Source of the DNA: Dictyostelium discoideum
Taxonomy: Eukaryota
Direction of reading: 5' to 3'
DNA length: 64,000 nucleotides
Assembly: GCA_000004695.1 (NCBI GenBank)
Contig: CM000152.2
Coordinates: forward strand, 1,696,001-1,760,000
Both the position numbers and the translations under genes were made by a program. The notes beneath the pieces were generated by a model, which had not been told where the DNA came from, searched no databases, and saw only the letters and a program-made list of their open reading frames with translations. This document shows positions 43,505-62,579 of this stretch, piece after piece (the stretch's first letter is position 1; each line of letters begins with the position of its first letter).

Positions 43505-44047
43505 ATTAAAAAACTAAATTTAATAAAAAAAAAAAAATTAAAATAAAATAAAAAAAAAAATAATAAAATAAAAACTAAATTTAATAAAAAAAAAATCAAA
43601 AAAAAACAAAAAAACTAAAAAAGAAAAGAAAAAAGAAATAAAAAATTTTAAAATTTTATAATAAAAACGTAGAAATATCTATACACTTTTCAACATTGTT
43701 TTTATTATTGGTCGAATTTTTAAAAAAATAAAATAAAAAATGAGAAAAATTATGGTAGCCACCAACCGTTTTGAAAAATCTGATAACAATTCACGAAAAA
43801 ATGCAAAGTTTTCAAAAATAAAAAATATCTTTTTTTTTTTTTTTATTTTTTTTTTTTTTATAAAAAGATGAAATTTTTGAGGAGGTTAGAGAATTTTCCA
43901 ACTACTTTTGACTCTAAAATTTTTTTTTAAAAAATATTTTTTATTTTTTTTTTTTTTCCAAACGATTCGGTATAAAAAGTTTTTTTTAAAAAAATTTAAT
44001 CATTATCTTAATCATCCAATTATTTTTTAAATATATATATAAATAAA

Positions 44048-45378
44048 ATGAAAGTTTTATCTGCCTTATGCGTTTTATTAGTCAGTGTTGCCACTGCCAA
44101 ACAACAATTATCCGAAGTTGAATACAGAAATGCTTTCACCAATTGGATGATTGCTCACCAAAGACATTATTCATCAGAAGAGTTCAATGGTCGTTACAAT
44201 ATCTTCAAAGCCAATATGGATTACGTCAATGAATGGAATACCAAAGGTAGTGAAACCGTTTTAGGTTTAAATGTCTTTGCTGATATCAGCAATGAAGAAT
44301 ACAGAGCCACCTATTTAGGTACCCCATTCGATGCTTCATCCCTCGAAATGACCGAATCCGATAAAATCTTCGATGCTTCCGCTCAAGTCGATTGGAGAAC
44401 TCAAGGTGCTGTCACCCCAATCAAAAATCAAGGTCAATGTGGTGGTTGTTGGTCATTCTCAACTACTGGTGCCACTGAAGGTGCTCAATACCTTGCCAAC
44501 GGTAAAAAGAATTTAGTCTCATTATCCGAACAAAATTTAATCGATTGTTCAGGTTCATACGGTAACAACGGTTGTGAAGGTGGTTTAATGACCTTAGCTT
44601 TCGAATACATCATCAATAACAAAGGTATTGATACTGAAAGCAGCTACCCATACACTGCTGAAGACGGTAAAAAATGTAAATTCAACCCAAAGAATGTTGC
44701 TGCTCAATTATCATCATACGTTAACGTTACCTCTGGTTCAGAATCAGATTTAGCTGCCAAAGTTACTCAAGGTCCAACCTCAGTTGCCATTGATGCATCC
44801 AACCAATCATTCCAATTGTACGTTTCAGGTATCTACAATGAGCCAGCTTGCTCTTCAACTCAATTAGATCACGGTGTCTTAGCTGTTGGTTTCGGTACTG
44901 GTAGTGGTTCATCTGGTTCCCATGGTGGTTCCCAATCACAATCTGCTGGTTCAGATTCACAATCTGCTGGTTCAGAATCATCCCAATCTGAATCCGGTTC
45001 ACAATCACAATCTGAATCCGGTTCACAATCACAATCACAATCTGGTTCTCAATCATTCTCTGGTTCCTTATACTCTGGTTCATACTCTGGTTCCCAATCT
45101 GGTTCCCAATCTGGTAACAGCGGTGCTGCTGTTAAACAAACTGGTGCTGGTTCAGGTTCAGGTTCAGGTTCAGGTTCCGGTTCCGGTTCAGGTTCAGGTT
45201 CAGTCTCAGGTTCAGCTTCAGGTTCCGCCTCAGGTTCCGCCTCAGGTTCATCAAGTGGTAGCAATAGCAACGGTGGTGTTTATCCAACCGCTGGTGACTA
45301 CTGGATCGTTAAAAACTCATGGGGTACCTCATGGGGTATGGATGGTTACATTTTAATGACCAAAGGAAATAACAATCA
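44048..45378 (+). CDS. Papain-family cysteine proteinase (cathepsin L-like) with C-terminal Ser/Gly-rich insert, exon 1
   Basis: Signal peptide [17 protein letters not shown]. Propeptide ERFNIN-like ([21 protein letters not shown]). Active-site [11 protein letters not shown] and H ([10 protein letters not shown]), N...W (NSWGTSWG). A roughly 120-aa (GS/QS)n insert sits before the C-terminus. GTAAGT donor, phase 2. It resembles the Dictyostelium CP4/CP5-type proteinases (cprD/cprE class) that carry Ser-rich GlcNAc-1-P domains. Confidence 0.85.
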
Positions 45379-55732: not shown

Positions 55733-56215
55733 TTATAATAAAAGTTCGTATTTGACTGGTTTGACTTCAACGAATTCAGTGTTTCTTGGGTTGACAAAGA
55801 AACCGTCCTTTGGTGCAGCTGGGTTACGTCTAACATCGACCCATTTACCGGCTTTCTTGGCTTCAACGACAGCTTTTTTGTTTTCTTGGATACGTTTTAA
55901 GTGAGCAGCCATGGAGTTTGATGGTTTGACGTGTTCAGTTCTGACGTGGATTTTCTTGGCAATGATTCTTGGACCAACACGTTTGTTGATGATGACACCA
56001 ACAGCACGTGGAGTAACATTCCAAACACGACCGGTACGACCGTGGTAGAATTTGTGTGGCATACCTTTGTGTACATTACCGGTGGCTTTGATATCAACGT
56101 AATCACCTAAACGGAAAGTTCTTAAGAAGGTGGTGGTTTGTAAGAGACCATGGTTTCTGAAACCACGAGAGAACAAGTATCTGGTACGAGCACGGAGACC
56201 GAATGAGTGAGGCAT
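55733..56215 (-). CDS. rpl21: 60S ribosomal protein L21e
   Basis: MPHSFGLRARTRYLFSRGFRNHGLLQTTTFLRTFRLGDYVDIKATGNVHKGMPHKFYHGRTGRVWNV... is collinear with eukaryotic RPL21 at 160 aa. Single exon. Confidence 0.9.
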   Translation of the reverse strand: MPHSFGLRARTRYLFSRGFRNHGLLQTTTFLRTFRLGDYVDIKATGNVHKGMPHKFYHGRTGRVWNVTPRAVGVIINKRVGPRIIAKKIHVRTEHVKPSNSMAAHLKRIQENKKAVVEAKKAGKWVDVRRNPAAPKDGFFVNPRNTEFVEVKPVKYELLL

Positions 56216-57570
56216 TTTCTAAAAAAAATAATTATAAATAAATATTAATATAATTATAATTTTTTTTCAAATCATTTGATTTATGCTATCAATTATTTTT
56301 TTTTTTATTTATTTTTTTATTATTATTATTATTGGATGACAAAATTATTGAGGGAGATTTTAGTTGAATTTTAATTTTATCCCTATATAGTTTTGTTGGG
56401 GAAAAAGAGAAATAACATCCAAAAAAAGTATCTAGTTTAACGTTTAAAAATCCTAATTTCCATATTTTTTTTGTTGACCAATATTACTATTATTATTATT
56501 TTATATACCTATAAATTTACTCTTTATTTGATGTTGTGATTGTGGGAAATAAAAAAAAAAAAAACGAATAGAGAAAAAAAAAAAATTTTTTTTGATTTTT
56601 TTTTTTTTTTTTGATTTCGAAAATTTTTTCCGTAAAAAAAAAAAAATAAAAATCAAAGTAAATCTGTAACACTACTAAATTTGTTTGATGCTATTTTTTT
56701 ATTTTATTATCTAATTCTATTTATTTAATGAGCAATACATTTTGATAATTTTAAATTGAATTTGAAATTTTTTTATTATCTTTTTTTTTTTTTTTTTTTT
56801 TTCTTAAAAAAAAAATAATAATTCCTCTTTATTTAATTTCTCCTCTTTAATTAATTGTCATCCATCAAATTTTTATTTTTATTTATTTTTTATTTTTATT
56901 TATTTATTTATTTATTTATTTATTTTATTTATTTATTATTTTTTATTATTATTTTTTTTTTTAATACAACGAAAGTCATATAAAAAAAATTGTATGTTAT
57001 CACATCATACCTTAAAATTTAACTAGAAAAACAGAGAAAAAAGTTTTTTTTTTTTTTTTTTTCACATAGGCCCTCTTTCAAAATTTTTAAAAAAAAAAAA
57101 TTGAGCTTGTGCGGTTCGATTTTTATAATTTTTCATACATAACTTTTACATTCCAATGTAAAATTTTTTTTTTTTTTTTTTTGAAAAATTCAAAAAATAA
57201 AAATAAAAAAATAAAAAAAAATAAAAAATGAAAAAACTATGAGATTGTTTAAATCTAAAATAAAAATTAGATGGTATTCTAATTTTAGATTAAAAACCGA
57301 ATTTAATATTTAATTTTAAATAAAAGCATGATTTTTTTTTATTTTTTTTTTTTTATTTTTTTATTTTTAATAATAATATTTTGGTGGCAGTATTCGACTA
57401 TAAAATATTTAAATATATAATTTAAAATATAAAATTTTTTTTTATTTTTTTTTATTTTTTTTTTATTTTTTTTCAATTCCTTAAAAAAAAATAAAATAAA
57501 AAAAAATATAAAAAAATAAATTAAAAATAAAAATAAAAACAATCAAACTCTTTAGGATTATGTAATTCTT

Positions 57571-57655
57571 TTATTTAAAATGTTTATCAGTAGCTTCTTT
57601 AATTTTATCAAATTCTCTTAGACCTCTATAAGGTTTGGTTTCTCCTTCATCAAAA
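57571..57655 (-). CDS. Thioredoxin-fold protein copy A, exon 3 (FFDEGETKPYRGLREFDKIKEATDKHFK*)
   Basis: The acceptor ATAATAG ends at 57656. The total product is 132 aa. Confidence 0.6.
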
Positions 57656-57734
57656 CTATTATAAAAAAAAAAAAAAAGTTAGAAATTTAAAATTTGAATA
57701 AAAAAAAAAAAAAAAATTTAAAGCCAAAACTTAC

Positions 57735-57908
57735 AAAACTAAAGATGGATAACCTGTAATATTATATTTTTTACAAATTGAGTCATCCCCTTCACAATGA
57801 ACTTGCGCCACTTTAATTTTTGAATTTTCAATGTCGCTGTTGTAATGTTGAGCTAGATTTTCAAGTACAGGTTGAAATTTTTTACAATGTCCACTCCATT
57901 TTACACCA
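57735..57908 (-). CDS. Thioredoxin-fold protein copy A, exon 2 (FGVKWSGHCKKFQPVLENLAQHYNSDIENSKIKVAQVHCEGDDSICKKYNITGYPSLV)
   Basis: PDI a-domain pattern (LVKFYAPWCGHCK...VDC....C....V.GYPTL.FF) but with SGHC in place of CGHC. GTAAGT donor. Confidence 0.65.
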
Positions 57909-58033
57909 CTTTTTTAAAATTTATAATTATAAGGTTTTAAATAATTTAATAAATTAAATAATAAATTAAATAATAAATTAATAAATTAATAAATAAAAAA
58001 ATAAATAAAAAATTAACATAATTTAATTCATAC

Positions 58034-58173
58034 AATTTAACTAACCAATTTCCATTTAGGATTAAATCTAAATTATCATTTGTAATAACAATAATTTGGG
58101 AAGGTTGGTTTTGGGAAAAGGCAACACAAAATAATAAAAAAAATAAAATAAATAAAGTAAATATTTTTTTCAT
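58034..58173 (-). CDS. Secreted thioredoxin-fold (PDI a-domain-like) protein, copy A, exon 1 (signal peptide MKKIFTLFILFFLLFCVAFS)
   Basis: ATG at 58173. GTATGA donor, phase 2. Confidence 0.65.
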
Positions 58174-58248
58174 TCTTTTTAATTTTATTATATTGTTTTT
58201 TTTAGATTTCTAAAATTTTTTTTAAAAAACAAAAGAAAAAACCAAAGG

Positions 58249-58279
<31 letters not shown>

Positions 58280-58311
58280 ATTATTGATACTGTATAAGTT
58301 GTTAAAAAAAG

Positions 58312-58318
58312 TGAGTCA
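58312..58318. promoter_or_regulatory. TGAGTCA (AP-1/GCN4-type bZIP palindrome) about 140 nt upstream of the copy A ATG
   Basis: It sits inside a conserved block, GTTGTTAAAAAAAGTGAGTCATCTTTTTTTT, that is shared with copy B. Confidence 0.35.
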
Positions 58319-58599
58319 TCTTTTTTTTCTGAAAAAAAAAAAATTATATAAAAAAAAACAATCAACAAAGACAAAAATATTTTGATTTTTTTGAAAATTC
58401 ATAAAATATTTACATCGTTCCAAGTTGTATATATCAGTGTGGTGTGTTTGAAATAATATTTTTTATTTTTTTTTTTTATTTTTTTTTTTATTTTTTTTAT
58501 TTTTTTTTTTTAATTCTTCCAAATTTCAATAAAGAATAATAAATAAATAAAAAAAAAAAAAAAAAAAATATAAGATTATGACCAAAATGAAACAATTCT

Positions 58600-58684
58600 T
58601 TATTTAAAATGTTTATCAATAGCCTCTTTAAAATTTTCAAATTGTCTTGGGCCTGTATAATGTTTGATTTGGCCTTCATTAAAA
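58600..58684 (-). CDS. Thioredoxin-fold protein copy B, exon 3 (FNEGQIKHYTGPRQFENFKEAIDKHFK*)
   Basis: Same 85-nt exon as copy A. Confidence 0.6.
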
Positions 58685-58768
58685 CTATAAAAAAAAAAAA
58701 AAAAAGTTAGAAATTTAAAATTTAAAATATTTGAATAAAAAAAAATATATTAAAAAGTTAAAACTTAC

Positions 58769-58942
58769 AAAACTAAAGATGGATAACCTGTAATATTATA
58801 TTTTTTACAAATTGAGTTATCCTCTTCACAATGAACTTGCGCCACTTTAACTTTTGAATTCTCATTGTCACTGTTGTAATGTTGAGCTAGATTTTCAAGT
58901 ACAGGTTGTAATTTTTTACAATGTAAACTCCATGCTGCACCA
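58769..58942 (-). CDS. Thioredoxin-fold protein copy B, exon 2 (GAAWSLHCKKLQPVLENLAQHYNSDNENSKVKVAQVHCEEDNSICKKYNITGYPSLV)
   Basis: Same 174-nt exon as copy A; the active-site motif is SLHC. Confidence 0.6.
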
Positions 58943-59012
58943 CTTTTTTAAAAATTTATAATTATAAGATTTTAAATAATTCAATAGATTAAAAATAAAT
59001 TAATTAAAAATT

Positions 59013-59052
<40 letters not shown>

Positions 59053-59137
59053 TAAATAAAATAAATTAATTAATAAAAAAAACAATAAATTAATAAATAA
59101 AAAAATAAATTAAAAATTAACATAAATTAATACATAC

Positions 59138-59268
59138 AATTTAACTAACCAATTTCCGGTTAAGAGTAAATCTAAATTTTCATTTGTAATAACGATTATT
59201 TTGGAAGGTTGGTTTTGGGAAAAAGCAACACAAAATAATAAAAAAAATAAAGTAAATATTTTTTGCAT
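59138..59268 (-). CDS. Thioredoxin-fold protein copy B, exon 1 (MQKIFTLFFLLFCVAFS...)
   Basis: ATG at 59268. Not in the ORF track because the product is under 60 aa. GTATGT donor. Confidence 0.6.
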
Positions 59269-59343
59269 TGTTTTTAATTTTATTATATTGTTTTTTTTAG
59301 ATTTCTAAAATTTTTTCTAAAAAACAAAAGAAAAAACCAAAGG

Positions 59344-59388
<45 letters not shown>

Positions 59389-59424
59389 ATTATTGATTAA
59401 TACTTTGTAAGTTGTCAGAAAAAG

Positions 59425-59431
59425 TGAGTCA
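59425..59431. promoter_or_regulatory. TGAGTCA about 157 nt upstream of the copy B ATG
   Basis: Conserved block GTTGTCAGAAAAAGTGAGTCATCTTTTTTTT. It is absent at the equivalent position of copy C. Confidence 0.35.
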
Positions 59432-59699
59432 TCTTTTTTTTTTTTTCTGAAAAAAAAAAAAAAAAAAAAAAAAAAACCATAACAAAGAAAAAACTATTTT
59501 TGATTTTTTTGAAACTACATAATATTTACATCGTTCCAAGTTGCATATATCAGTGTGGTGTGTTTGAAATAATATTTTTTATTTTTTTTTTTTTATTTCT
59601 TTATTTTTTTTTTTTTAATTCTCCCAAATTTCAATAAAGAGATATGCACTTTCAAATTTATAATAATAAATAAATATTTTTTTTTTAAAAAAAAAATAT

Positions 59700-60330
59700 A
59701 TAAGATTATGACTAAAACGAAACAATTCTTTATTTAAATGTTTATCAATAGCCTCTTTAAAATTTTCAAATAGTCTTGGGCCTCTATAATGTTTGATTTC
59801 GCCTTCATCAAAACTGAAAAAAAAAAAAATATAGAAAAAGTTAAAACTTACAAAACTAAAGATGGATAACCTATAATATTATATTTTATACAAATTGATT
59901 CATACTCTTCACAATGAACTTGCGCCACTTTAACTTTTGAATTCTCATTATCACTGTTGTAATGTTGAGCTAGATTTTCAAGTACAGGTTGTAATTTTTT
60001 ACAATGTCCACTCCATCCTGCACCACTTTTTTAAAAATTTATAATTATAAGGTTTTAAATAATTCAATAAATTAAAATAAATAAAAAAAACAAAAGATTA
60101 ATAAATGAATAAATAATTAAATAATTAAATAAATTAATAAATAAAAAAACAATAAATTAATAAATAAAAAAATAAATTAAAAATTAACATAATTTTAGAC
60201 ATACAATTTAACTAACCAATTTCCGTTTAAGATTAAATCTAAATTATCATTTGTAATAACAATTATATTGGAAGGTTGGTTTTGGGAAAAAGCAACACAA
60301 AGTAACAAAAAAAATAAAATAAATAAAGTA
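59700..60330 (-). pseudogene. Thioredoxin-fold protein copy C, degenerate/divergent copy (exon 2 at 59852-60025 encodes GAGWSGHCKKL...)
   Basis: The signal-peptide exon has ATG replaced by ACA (TIKKIFTLFILFF). A 1-nt deletion before the normal stop (CATTTAAATAAAG vs CATTTTAAATAA) extends the frame. The upstream TGAGTCA element is lost. The only in-frame ATG is far upstream at 60413, inside a poly-F tract. Confidence 0.4.
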
Positions 60331-61139
60331 AATATTTTTTTAATTGTTTTTAATTTTAATTTATTGTTTTTTAAAAAAAAAAAAAAAGAGAAAAAAAAAA
60401 AAAAAATTATCACTAATACTTCCTTAAAAAATGTTATTCATCTTTTAAGGCACCCCATATTTTACTCATTAAAATACAAAAAAATATAACTAATTTTTGT
60501 TTTTTGAAGTCATATATATATTTACATTGTTCCAAGTTGTTAAGGTGTGGCTGAAATTATTTTTTTTTTTTTTTTTAATTCTCCCAAATTTCAATAATGA
60601 GCGATATACTTTCTGATTTACAATATCAATATTTAAATATTTTTTTTTAAAAGTAAAATAAAATAAAGTAATTTATTTATTTAATATTACTTTTAAAAAA
60701 AATAAAAAAAATTATTTAAATACTTATTCTTTTTTTTTTTGATTTTTTTGATTTTTTTTTTTTTTTAATATTGTTTGGAAAACTGAATAATAATTCTTTT
60801 TTGTGTTTGAGTAGGGAAGAAAAAAAATTCCTTTACTTTATAAAATATTCTTAAATTTAACAAGGCTAGGCCGCCACCTGCTTTAATTAATCCCTAATTA
60901 TTATTTCTCAAATTTTTAAGATAGTTTTTTTTTTCTTTTTTTTTTTTTTAACAAAATTTATTCTAACAAACCCTCAAACATTATAATATAATTTTTTAGT
61001 AAAAAAAATTCAACAATAAACTATTTTAAATCTATTTTTTTTTAACATATATTACAAATAATTTTTTATTTATTGTTTAGTAAACTTTAAAAATCTTTTT
61101 GGTATTTTTTATTTTTATAAAATTATATAAATTTTTAAT

Positions 61140-61200
61140 TTAATTCCATTTTGATTTTGGAATGGCTTGTGGGATTGAAGCCATAGTAGCAATACCACAT
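61140..61200 (-). CDS. Cysteine proteinase paralog 2, exon 2 (QCGIATMASIPQAIPKSKWN*)
   Basis: The acceptor CCTTTATAG has the same structure as paralog 1. The intron is 135 nt. Confidence 0.75.
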
Positions 61201-61267
61201 CTATAAAGGTGAAGTTAAAATAAAAATTAAAAAAAATTTAAATAAATGATTAGTTAGTAACTCTATC

Positions 61268-61302
<35 letters not shown>

Positions 61303-61335
61303 TTTTTTTTTTTTTAATATATTATGTGTACTTAC

Positions 61336-62579
61336 TGATTATCCTTATCTTTACTCATTAAAATGTAACCATTAATACCCCAGTCAAGACCCCATGAGTT
61401 TTTAACGATCCAATAGTTACCATCAGTTGGGTAATCACCAGAGTTACTATTACCACCATTTGATGAACCTGAGAATGAACTTGAACCAGAGGCTGAACCT
61501 GAACCAGAGACGGAACCTGAACCTGAACCTGTACCAGCACCAGTGAAACTATTGGAACCTTGAGATTGAGATGATTGTGACCAACTGTTTGAATCTTGTG
61601 ATGATTGAGATTGAGATGATTGTGACCAACTGTTTGAATCTTGTGATTGTGATGATTCTGACCAATTGTTATTTGATGATTGTGATTGAGAACCAGCAGA
61701 TTGTGATTGAGAACCAGATGAACCACTACCGAAACCAACAGCTAAGACACCGTGATCCAATTGAGTTGAAGAGCAAGCTGGTTCATTGTAGATACCAGAT
61801 GAATAAAATTGGAATGATGGTTGAGATGCATCAATAGCAACTGAGGTTGGACCTTGAGTAACTTTGGCAGCTAAATCTGATTCTGAACCAGAGGTAACGT
61901 TAACGTATGATGATAATTCAGCACCAATGTTACTTGGGTTGTATTTACATTTTTCAGTGTTGGCAGTGAATGGGTAACTGCTTTCAGTATCAATACCTCC
62001 GTTATTGATGATGTATTCGAAAGCTAAGGTCATTAAACCACCTTCACAACCGTTGTTACCGTATGAACCTGAACAATCGATTAATTGTTGTTCAGAGACT
62101 GATGTTAAATCTGAATCACCATTGGCAATGTATTGAGCACCTTCAGTGGCACCAGTTGCTGAGAATGACCAACAACCACCACATTCACCTTGATTTTTGA
62201 TTGGGGTGACAGCACCTTTAGCTCTCCAATCGACGGAATTAGCTTGGACACCACCAAATACTTTTTCAGATGGAGTCATTTCGAGTGATGATGCATCGAA
62301 TGGGGTACCTAAATAGGTGGCTCTGTATTCTTCGTTGGTGATATCAGCGAAAACATTTAAACCTAAAACGGTTTCACTACCTTTGGTATTCCATTCATTG
62401 ATGTAATCCATATTGGCTTTGAAGATATTGAAACGACCATTGAACTCTTCTGATGAATAATGTCTTTGGTGAGCAATCATCCAATTGGTGAAAGCATTTC
62501 TGTATTGGAGTTCAGATAATTGTTGTTTAGCAGTGGCAACACTAACTAATAAAACACATAAAGCAGATAAAACTTTCAT
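61336..62579 (-). CDS. Papain-family cysteine proteinase with Ser-rich insert, paralog 2, exon 1
   Basis: The N-terminal 300 aa are nearly identical to the gene at 44048 ([23 protein letters not shown]...), with [11 protein letters not shown] and [10 protein letters not shown]. The insert is SQSQSSNNNWSESSQSQDSNSWSQ rather than (GSQS)n. GTAAGT donor. Confidence 0.85.

Follow-up and report, generated by a model that had tools for sequence, protein, structure and literature searches.

What has become of a tandem array of small thioredoxin-fold genes whose products, apparently secreted, have lost the first cysteine of their redox motif? The question is raised by a 64,000-nucleotide (nt) stretch of Dictyostelium discoideum DNA (contig CM000152.2, positions 1,696,001 to 1,760,000; hereafter the window, to which all coordinates refer), whose minus strand carries three adjacent copies, A, B and C, of a gene encoding a thioredoxin-type domain with S-x-H-C in place of the canonical CGHC. 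A first-pass annotation of the window had read them as three working variants of a secreted thioredoxin-fold protein. Our analysis leads to a different view, to which we assign a probability of about 0.8: the array is a young birth-and-death family of truncated copies of a protein disulfide isomerase (PDI) gene, the product of which would be secreted and redox-dead. The elements of the array are as follows (aa, amino acids).

57571..60655, minus strand: the whole tandem array, three units by unit alignment, each with upstream blocks followed by a gene
60344-60205, 60025-59852 and 59813-~59730, minus strand: exon equivalents of copy A, lacking a start and a stop; frame 59615..60344
59268-59138, 58942-58769 and 58684-58600 (58600..59268), minus strand: exons of copy B; intact, 129-aa precursor, WSLHC, type 1
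58173-58034, 57908-57735 and 57655-57571 (57571..58173), minus strand: exons of copy C; intact, 132-aa precursor, WSGHC, type 2
starts at 60595, 59635 and 58530, minus strand: upstream block ATTGAAATTTGGGAGAATTAAAAA, one per unit
starts at 60539, 59543 and 58427, minus strand: upstream block CAACTTGGAAC, one per unit

The units are arranged head to tail with start-to-start spacings of 1076 and 1095 nt, in agreement with the ~1.1 kb originally reported, and the repeat families of the region likewise occur in three copies spaced ~1030-1130 nt apart. Multiple alignment gives 84-88% identity between units and 90-91% between the genes including their introns, far beyond chance. Each copy has three exons, and the GT..AG introns lie at identical positions, also as first described. 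The exons measure 131/174/85 nt in B and 140/174/85 nt in C, so the reported sizes stand for these two copies; the first two exons of A are 140 and 174 nt, and its third is not 85 nt. Intron 2 is 38 nt long in A, 84 nt in B and 79 nt in C. The sharing of blocks between spacers was also correctly noted, with ATTGAAATTTGGGAGAATTAAAAA and CAACTTGGAAC upstream of each gene. No Rfam family or tRNA is matched in 56500-61500, so the conserved blocks of the spacers do not correspond to any known RNA gene; the plus strand holds nothing credible. The intact copies end in the stop context TAAATAAA, and peptides encoded by the family include IIVITNDNLDLILNGNWLVK, VAQVHCEGDDSICK and FQPVLENLAQHYNSDIENSK. 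The motifs WSGHC (A and C) and WSLHC (B) are read directly from the gene models. The core ICKKYNITGYPSLV, described as conserved in the array, reads ICIKYNIIGYPSLV in copy A. The reported length of ~130 aa fits the whole precursor (129 and 132 aa) and not the domain, which spans ~100-110 aa.

Copy A is a pseudogene. Its start position (60344-60342) reads ATT where B and C have ATG, and no in-frame ATG is found upstream or within the frame. Two codons short of the stop, one nucleotide has been deleted (CATTTAAATAAA versus CATTTTAAATAA); termination is abolished and the frame continues for 41 further codons to 59615. In the unit alignment, ~50 nt of proximal upstream sequence common to B and C is deleted as well. 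The window, which is very AT-rich, is 99.5% identical to CM142509.1 from an independent D. discoideum assembly (GCA_054883475.1). Both the ATT start and the 1-nt deletion recur in this assembly, and the coding lesions are therefore real rather than sequencing errors. Between A and B the ratio of nonsynonymous to synonymous substitution rates (dN/dS) is 1.6, and polarisation with an orthologue from another strain places nine nonsynonymous and two synonymous changes on the A lineage. A separate feature of this copy is that its exon 1 (60344-60205) has derived states in common with that of copy C (58173-58034), namely Asp34, Asn41 and an LFI segment, which are missing from B and from all other strains. 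This distribution suggests a possible gene conversion between the non-adjacent array members A and C.

Copy B is intact, yet no sign of constraint can be seen in it after its separation from A. Its lineage has accumulated 11 nonsynonymous changes versus one synonymous, together with a 9-nt in-frame deletion within the signal-peptide core, and the radical Gly-to-Leu replacement in its motif corresponds to two adjacent nucleotide changes (GGA to TTA). The exact copy B protein is missing from the public protein collection searched. Copy C, the protein of which is identical to NCBI KAM9949225.1, has a dN/dS of 0.43 relative to orthologues of other strains and is presumably a conserved, maintained gene. 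With one member dead and another showing no sign of constraint since the two separated, a tandem triplication of three working genes is not what the locus contains. Elsewhere in the family dN/dS lies between 0.3 and 0.6 (about 0.45), and 48 positions are invariant, among them those of the motif, the cis-Pro and both members of the Cys pair. As judged from these comparisons, a dN/dS of ~0.45 indicates that purifying selection acts on the family and that its old active-site face would still be in use.

Word-indexed and exhaustive HMMER searches recovered family members from D. discoideum, D. cf. discoideum, D. citrinum and D. dimigraforme and from nowhere else; in these searches scores drop sharply from 181 bits for the family to 79 bits for the next protein, a canonical CGHC PDI. 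The C-x-x-C motif is replaced by S-x-H-C in every member, as SGHC, as SLHC in copy B only, or as SAHC in D. dimigraforme. The serine codon is AGT, one step from TGT (Cys), in 11 of the 11 gene copies examined at the DNA level, drawn from six assemblies; the D. dimigraforme copy, from a seventh, was seen as WSAHC at the protein level only. Because AGT occurs in every copy examined at the DNA level, serine is ancestral to the family. The replacement of the first CGHC cysteine noted in the first-pass annotation is thereby borne out, and the base-calling error that it had named as a possible refutation is excluded.

The origin of the family can be traced to a single gene. In per-domain scoring, the a domain of the D. 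purpureum protein DICPUDRAFT_93483 (408 aa) reaches 101 bits, and all other CGHC domains score 69 or less. This protein has a TMX3-like layout, with a signal peptide, a CGHC a domain, a Thioredoxin_6 (PF13848) region and a C-terminal membrane segment, and DDB_G0293378 (417 aa) is the orthologue in D. discoideum. Residues 1-131 of the latter match the family proteins along their whole length, at 47-53% identity, and the match stops exactly at K131, the residue encoded at the exon 3/4 junction of the parent. The signal peptides can also be aligned (LFLLVCVAFS versus FFLLFCVAFS), and both intron positions and phases are the same in family and parent. Exon 1 ends ...GTT GAA TT|GTAGGT in the parent and ...GTT AAA TT|GTATG in the family. 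Exon 2 has the same length, 174 nt, and the same end phase in the two, and finishes two codons past G-Y-P-x. In the parent, exon 3 (81 nt) closes with TCA AA|GTAAAT; in the family it is 85 nt long, closes with AAA TAA followed by ATAAA and consists of the 81 nt of parent exon 3 plus the first 4 nt of intron 3. The family therefore owes its stop codon to the old intron-3 donor, which is now read as part of the coding sequence (AA|GTAA to AAA TAA), and an AATAAA poly(A) signal overlaps this codon. The Thioredoxin_6 domain and transmembrane (TM) segment of the parent are lacking.

On the strength of these sequence correspondences, the family is shown to be a DNA-level partial duplicate of DDB_G0293378, comprising exons 1-3 and, it seems, the promoter. 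An ancestor of the D. discoideum/citrinum/dimigraforme clade copied this segment, encoding the signal peptide and the catalytic a domain. With the downstream exons gone, the intron-3 donor is read through, which creates the stop codon and the adjacent AATAAA. The nucleophilic cysteine changed to serine (TGT to AGT) before the three species diverged. In the D. discoideum complex a secondary copy was inserted in the interval from a cysteine-protease gene to rpl21, where it has repeatedly duplicated in tandem and decayed. The parent and its orthologues, which are uncharacterised TMX3-like membrane PDIs, share with the family the VxC...xC cysteine pair and the GYP cis-Pro loop. They differ in that DDB_G0293378 has CGHC, a b-type Thioredoxin_6 domain and a C-terminal TM segment within its 417 residues, whereas the family has S-x-H-C and ends after exon 3; in addition, the F-A-P-W of the parent has Gly in place of the aromatic residue in the family, and its Pro is usually lost.

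The position between the C1 cysteine protease and rpl21 is referred to here as locus 1 and was retrieved from other genomes using rpl21 and the family proteins as anchors. Its flanking genes and its content are listed below.

61140..62579, minus strand: C1 papain-family cysteine protease, the upstream neighbour and not a family member; open reading frame (ORF) with a Ser/Gly-rich insert
55733..56215, minus strand: rpl21, the downstream neighbour and the anchor for retrieving the locus from other strains and species
Locus 1 in the window and its near-identical twin: three copies, A dead
Locus 1 in D. discoideum ACTFIW: two intact copies
Locus 1 in D. discoideum ACTFIR: one copy
Locus 1 in D. 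cf. discoideum ACTFIZ: one intact copy and a relic fragment with a stop
Locus 1 in D. cf. discoideum ACTFIY: one intact copy and a pseudogene with two stops
Locus 1 in D. citrinum, D. firmibasis and D. dimigraforme: no copy between the protease (or its position) and rpl21

A second position, locus 2, has the gene order GTPase - large gene - HSP20 - thioredoxin-fold family gene - membrane protein - aquaporin and holds one copy each in D. discoideum, D. citrinum and D. dimigraforme; it lies 290 kb from locus 1 in strain ACTFIR. Locus 2 is the ancestral one, because it is occupied in all three species and locus 1 is empty in the latter two. The locus 1 array is thus shown to be an innovation of the D. 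discoideum complex that has repeatedly duplicated and decayed. Two sequence types can be distinguished within it: type 1 (GAGWSGHC...GPRQFENFKEAI) comprises A, B and the first ACTFIW copy, and type 2 (GVKWSGHCKKF...GLREFDKIKEAT) comprises C, the second ACTFIW copy and the single ACTFIR copy. Since both types are present in ACTFIW and in the window, the first duplication is older than these strains. The A/B duplication is recent, with a synonymous divergence (dS) of 0.04; between the loci dS is 0.35-0.57.

At locus 2 of one D. citrinum strain (fetched region L004, 10565-10600), the family stop TAA reads GAA and the annotated protein has 170 aa, and in another strain of this species the protein ends five residues later (...YFNEKEFH). 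The C-terminus created by donor read-through is accordingly not fixed. A functional link between the family and the neighbouring cysteine protease was considered and dropped: the ancestral locus adjoins HSP20, and D. citrinum, D. firmibasis and D. dimigraforme are empty at locus 1.

A short element upstream of the genes may provide a further trace of the parent. Its positions in the window are:

59425..59433, minus strand: GATGACTCA (TGASTCA, bZIP/AP-1/GCN4-type), 163 nt upstream of the copy B ATG
58312..58320, minus strand: GATGACTCA, 145 nt upstream of the copy C ATG
60434..60442, minus strand: degenerate counterpart GATGAATAA upstream of pseudogene A, placed by unit alignment and adjoining the ~50-nt deletion

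A motif scan found no TGASTCA upstream of copy A. The longer form GATGASTCA has three matches in the 64-kb window versus 0.31 expected, and two of the three are the promoter sites of B and C. GATGA(C/G)TCA lies 87-167 nt upstream of the ATG in 9 of the 11 intact family copies examined, at both loci and in three species, and the parent DDB_G0293378 has TGACTCA 137 nt upstream of its ATG. The element contains GC amid an otherwise highly AT-rich spacer. The promoter seems to have come along with the duplicated exons, if the shared element is taken as a guide. No transcription factor of the unfolded protein response is known in Dictyostelium (PMC6025073).

The predicted products are thioredoxin-fold proteins of PDI ancestry. 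All three translations match the Pfam Thioredoxin family PF00085, at 65.7-71.9 bits against a cut-off of 23.5 (E-values from 4e-18 for C to 5e-20 for B). An AF2 model of copy C (pLDDT 88) has the beta-alpha-beta-alpha-beta-alpha-beta-beta-alpha topology of thioredoxin, preceded by a low-confidence N-terminal helix that coincides with the signal peptide. Foldseek matches this model to ERp46, PDI and thioredoxin structures, the best being the thioredoxin (Trx) domains of ERp46/TXNDC5 with a target-normalised TM-score of ~0.9 and a root-mean-square deviation of 1.4 Å. In sequence searches against solved structures the best relatives are TXNDC5, ERdj5, PDIA4 and PDIA3 (E 1e-13 per domain for TXNDC5), and among 8042 HMMER matches PDI-family proteins are dominant; the a-type domain is homologous to PDI catalytic domains.

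The N-terminus has a Lys-rich MKK n-region, a 13-residue core with a mean Kyte-Doolittle hydropathy of 2.9-3.2 and A-F-S before the predicted cleavage site, and is homologous to the signal peptide of the parent. Taken with the PF00085 matches and the AF2 fold, these features uphold the first-pass description of small single-domain PDI a-type proteins with a secretory signal, the signal being predicted from hydropathy. Hydropathy profiles of the family proteins contain no second hydrophobic stretch or membrane anchor, and the C-terminus (...DKHFK) carries no K/HDEL retrieval signal. Dictyostelium can retain PDIs by means other than K/HDEL, as described for Dd-PDI (PMC6025073). The product is probably soluble and either secreted or delivered beyond the endoplasmic reticulum (ER), to judge from these sequence features.

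The mature protein contains three cysteines: Cys55 in the motif, Cys85 and Cys92. The latter two align with a pair conserved in all three TXNDC5 domains and in the parent, and probably form a structural disulfide; with these two paired off, Cys55 would be left unpaired. Residues W51, S52, H54, C55, K56 and P60, the cis-Pro101 loop and Cys85/Cys92 are invariant in the family, and the segment before the motif has changed from F-A-P-W-C to G-x-x-W-S, with replacement of the aromatic residue and the Pro. The change of Glu to Lys in L-V-E-F was also considered as a sign of lost catalysis and was dropped, as TXNDC5 and many active CGHC domains have Lys at this position.

Dithiol-disulfide exchange starts with attack by the thiolate of the N-terminal cysteine, and an S-x-H-C protein is therefore predicted to lack oxidase, reductase and isomerase activity. 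Neither oxidase nor isomerase activity is detectable in SxxC mutants of PDI, and the Eimeria protein EtPDIL, a natural single-domain SxxC protein, is inactive in a scrambled-RNase assay (PMC4059736). The SxxC protein CnoX of E. coli has no oxidoreductase activity and forms mixed disulfides through a cysteine away from the motif (PMC6282202). The first-pass statement that SxxC proteins typically act as isomerases or mixed-disulfide traps describes instead the CxxS variants, which keep the N-terminal nucleophile. By analogy with these systems, the product is most likely a redox-dead secreted binding module, which would use the old active-site face for binding, escort or as a decoy; the unpaired Cys55 might make one disulfide to a partner, as reported for PDILT.

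Several points weigh against this interpretation. A dN/dS of 0.4-0.6 represents moderate constraint only, and few changes (12 and 11) could be counted once A and B had split. We infer expression, splicing, secretion and the redox state of Cys55 alike, and we infer the absence of the family from the AX4 protein set, considered further below, from a protein-database search rather than from the annotation of that genome. What the TGASTCA element provides is no more than a conserved footprint. Near the motif, the Arg of Y-x-G-x-R is not conserved at locus 2, being Ile or Lys in D. citrinum and D. dimigraforme; its loss fits the loss of catalysis and is silent on a positive function.

Among the alternatives, the one that fares best, and which we still regard as unlikely, is a lineage-specific new role. 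The protein would then be a decoy or regulator that occupies partners of the parent PDI or extracellular thiol enzymes, or Cys55 would serve as a thiol sensor or adduct-former. Were this so, the copy-number turnover and the fast protein evolution between strains would reflect social or microbial conflict.

It is improbable that the whole family is non-functional debris, in which dead partial PDI duplicates have kept their ORFs by chance. The members are truncated duplicates without a catalytic nucleophile and are apparently unannotated in AX4, pseudogenes or relics occur in three strains, and A and B together have accumulated 20 nonsynonymous versus three synonymous changes since their split, all of which speak for it. 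Against this, intact frames of 129-134 aa, all four splice sites and the stop context have been kept at two loci, across D. discoideum, D. cf. discoideum, D. citrinum and D. dimigraforme, although the loci have diverged to a dS of 0.35-0.57. The family-wide dN/dS is 0.3-0.6 and not 1, the 48 invariant positions include the motif, the cis-Pro and the Cys pair, and the GC-containing upstream element is conserved within an AT-rich spacer.

On another reading, which we consider improbable, all three copies work, as secreted SxxC variants of an oxidoreductase with an isomerase or mixed-disulfide-trapping role that runs through the motif. The motif His, the second Cys, the cis-Pro loop and the fold are all conserved, and disulfide-dependent interactions are reported for PDILT, a natural SxxC protein (cited in PMC4059736). 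The nucleophile of the reaction is the missing N-terminal cysteine, however, and both the PDI SxxC mutants and EtPDIL are inactive (PMC4059736), the mixed disulfides of CnoX do not involve its motif (PMC6282202), and copy A cannot be translated from an AUG.

A still less probable variant is an active one-cysteine enzyme in which Cys55 is a peroxidatic or otherwise reactive thiol hydrogen-bonded by Ser52, as in the T/S-x-x-C site of peroxiredoxins. That site is said, in work from 2004 by Copley et al., to have been derived from a CxxC thioredoxin-like ancestor. Ser52, His54 and Cys55 never vary in the family, unlike the residue that lies between them and the two before Trp51, and Ser is retained without drift in every copy examined; these points speak for such an enzyme. 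The peroxiredoxin signature P-x-x-x-T/S-x-x-C is lacking, however, with the invariant Gly48 at the Pro position, and the only conserved Arg nearby is the one replaced at locus 2 of D. citrinum and D. dimigraforme. Moreover, the second cysteine of the thioredoxin-fold motif is normally buried.

Finally, the idea that A and B are C-terminal exons of the upstream cysteine protease, which would yield a protease-thioredoxin fusion, has next to no chance of being correct: it draws on an automated 603-aa model in the near-identical strain, a 501-aa equivalent elsewhere and the lack of an ATG in copy A, but in the window the protease ends in a final exon and stop of its own, and it is a separate 428-432-aa gene in the strains of fetched regions L002, L003 and L011. 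An ATG, a signal peptide and promoter blocks all belong to copy B itself, and no protease adjoins the family gene at the ancestral locus. The same pipeline also produced a 168-aa chimera of two adjacent thioredoxin-fold copies, which points to an artefact of prediction.

The preferred reading, a family of truncated and redox-dead PDI gene copies, places these proteins among several known systems without orthology to any named SxxC protein. The best solved matches are the Trx domains of human TXNDC5/ERp46 (PDB 3UVT, 3WGD, 3WGX and 8EKY), at 24-33% identity; these have the Lys of L-V-K-F and the conserved Cys pair after strand 3 in common with the family. ERp46 is an active oxidase with three CGHC domains and KDEL, whereas the family has one domain and neither nucleophile nor retrieval signal. 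ERp18/TXNDC12 and AGR2/AGR3 consist, like the family, of a signal peptide and one Trx domain, and secretion and a degenerate motif are further points in common with the AGR proteins. ERp18 (CGAC) and AGR2 (CPHS) keep the N-terminal cysteine and have C-termini of the ER-retrieval type. Neither ERp18 nor the AGR proteins were among the closest matches of the family searches.

Closer in motif is PDILT (testis; SKQS/SKKC), a secretory-pathway SxxC protein that is reported to lack oxidoreductase activity yet to form disulfide-dependent complexes (cited in PMC4059736). PDILT is an ER-retained metazoan protein of four domains (a-b-b'-a') that lost its Cys independently of the family. EtPDIL and E. 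coli CnoX (YbbN) are natural, inactive SxxC proteins of Trx fold and resemble the family in their motif. EtPDIL has no signal peptide and CnoX is cytoplasmic, with a TPR domain and an extra-motif cysteine. Their relation to the family is one of fold only. The SxxC class (PDILT, TMX2, EtPDIL and CnoX) is functional and not a clade, its members having lost the cysteine independently of one another, and the family belongs to it in having Ser first and Cys second. No SxxC protein from outside the D. discoideum/citrinum/dimigraforme clade was among the close matches, and the family is nearest to its Dictyostelium CGHC parent and to TXNDC5-like domains. By sequence and predicted fold, the family is of thioredoxin fold and belongs to the PDI family by descent, without the CxxC motif or the TMX3-like architecture.

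These results do not overturn current understanding and reveal no new kind of biology. They do provide an unusually clean example of the birth of a small secreted protein through partial duplication, a stranded splice donor and a one-nucleotide loss of the nucleophile, followed by tandem birth and death with strain-variable copy number. With this family, the few non-catalytic relatives of PDI gain a natural single-domain SxxC protein, which offers a simple system for the role of the thioredoxin active-site face without redox chemistry. For curators, it is useful as a conserved small gene family that is seemingly absent from the AX4 protein set and mis-modelled by pipelines.

Searches returned no family protein from AX4, UniProt or dictyBase, although the same database holds the AX4 products of the parent and of the genes next to the array; for this reason the reference protein set of AX4 seems to lack the family. 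In a review on the ER of Dictyostelium, the authors name only pdi1 and pdi2 as PDI-family genes (PMC6025073), which, with the lack of AX4 and UniProt entries among the matches, agrees with the first-pass remark that this is not a textbook Dictyostelium family. Literature searches found nothing relevant on Dictyostelium SXXC proteins, the WSGHC peptide or DDB_G0293378, and a broader search on Dictyostelium PDI returned plant papers only. No transcript-derived (Logan) entry was found for the family; rpl21 likewise has none, so this lack cannot be used as a sign of silence.

Automated NCBI gene models at locus 1 are unreliable. In GCA_054883475.1 the protease, A and B are fused into a 603-aa model with a Peptidase_C1 and two Thioredoxin matches; in another strain there is a 501-aa protease-thioredoxin fusion; two adjacent copies are merged elsewhere into the 168-aa chimera; and one intact copy (fetched region L011, 7994-8618) has no gene call at all. 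Of the assemblies labelled D. discoideum, ACTFIR and ACTFIW are ~91-94% identical to the window in the syntenic region and ACTFIT is 99.5% identical; from these identities, the label appears to cover rather divergent lineages.

The neighbouring protease has two features of its own. A low-complexity insert rich in Ser, Gly and Gln (SGSQSQS... repeats) lies at 61332-61700 on the minus strand, between segments of the catalytic domain. A second papain-family cysteine-protease sequence is located at ~44028-44902 on the plus strand and has ~90% DNA identity to the gene at 62579-61140 (minus strand), which therefore has a nearby inverted paralogue.

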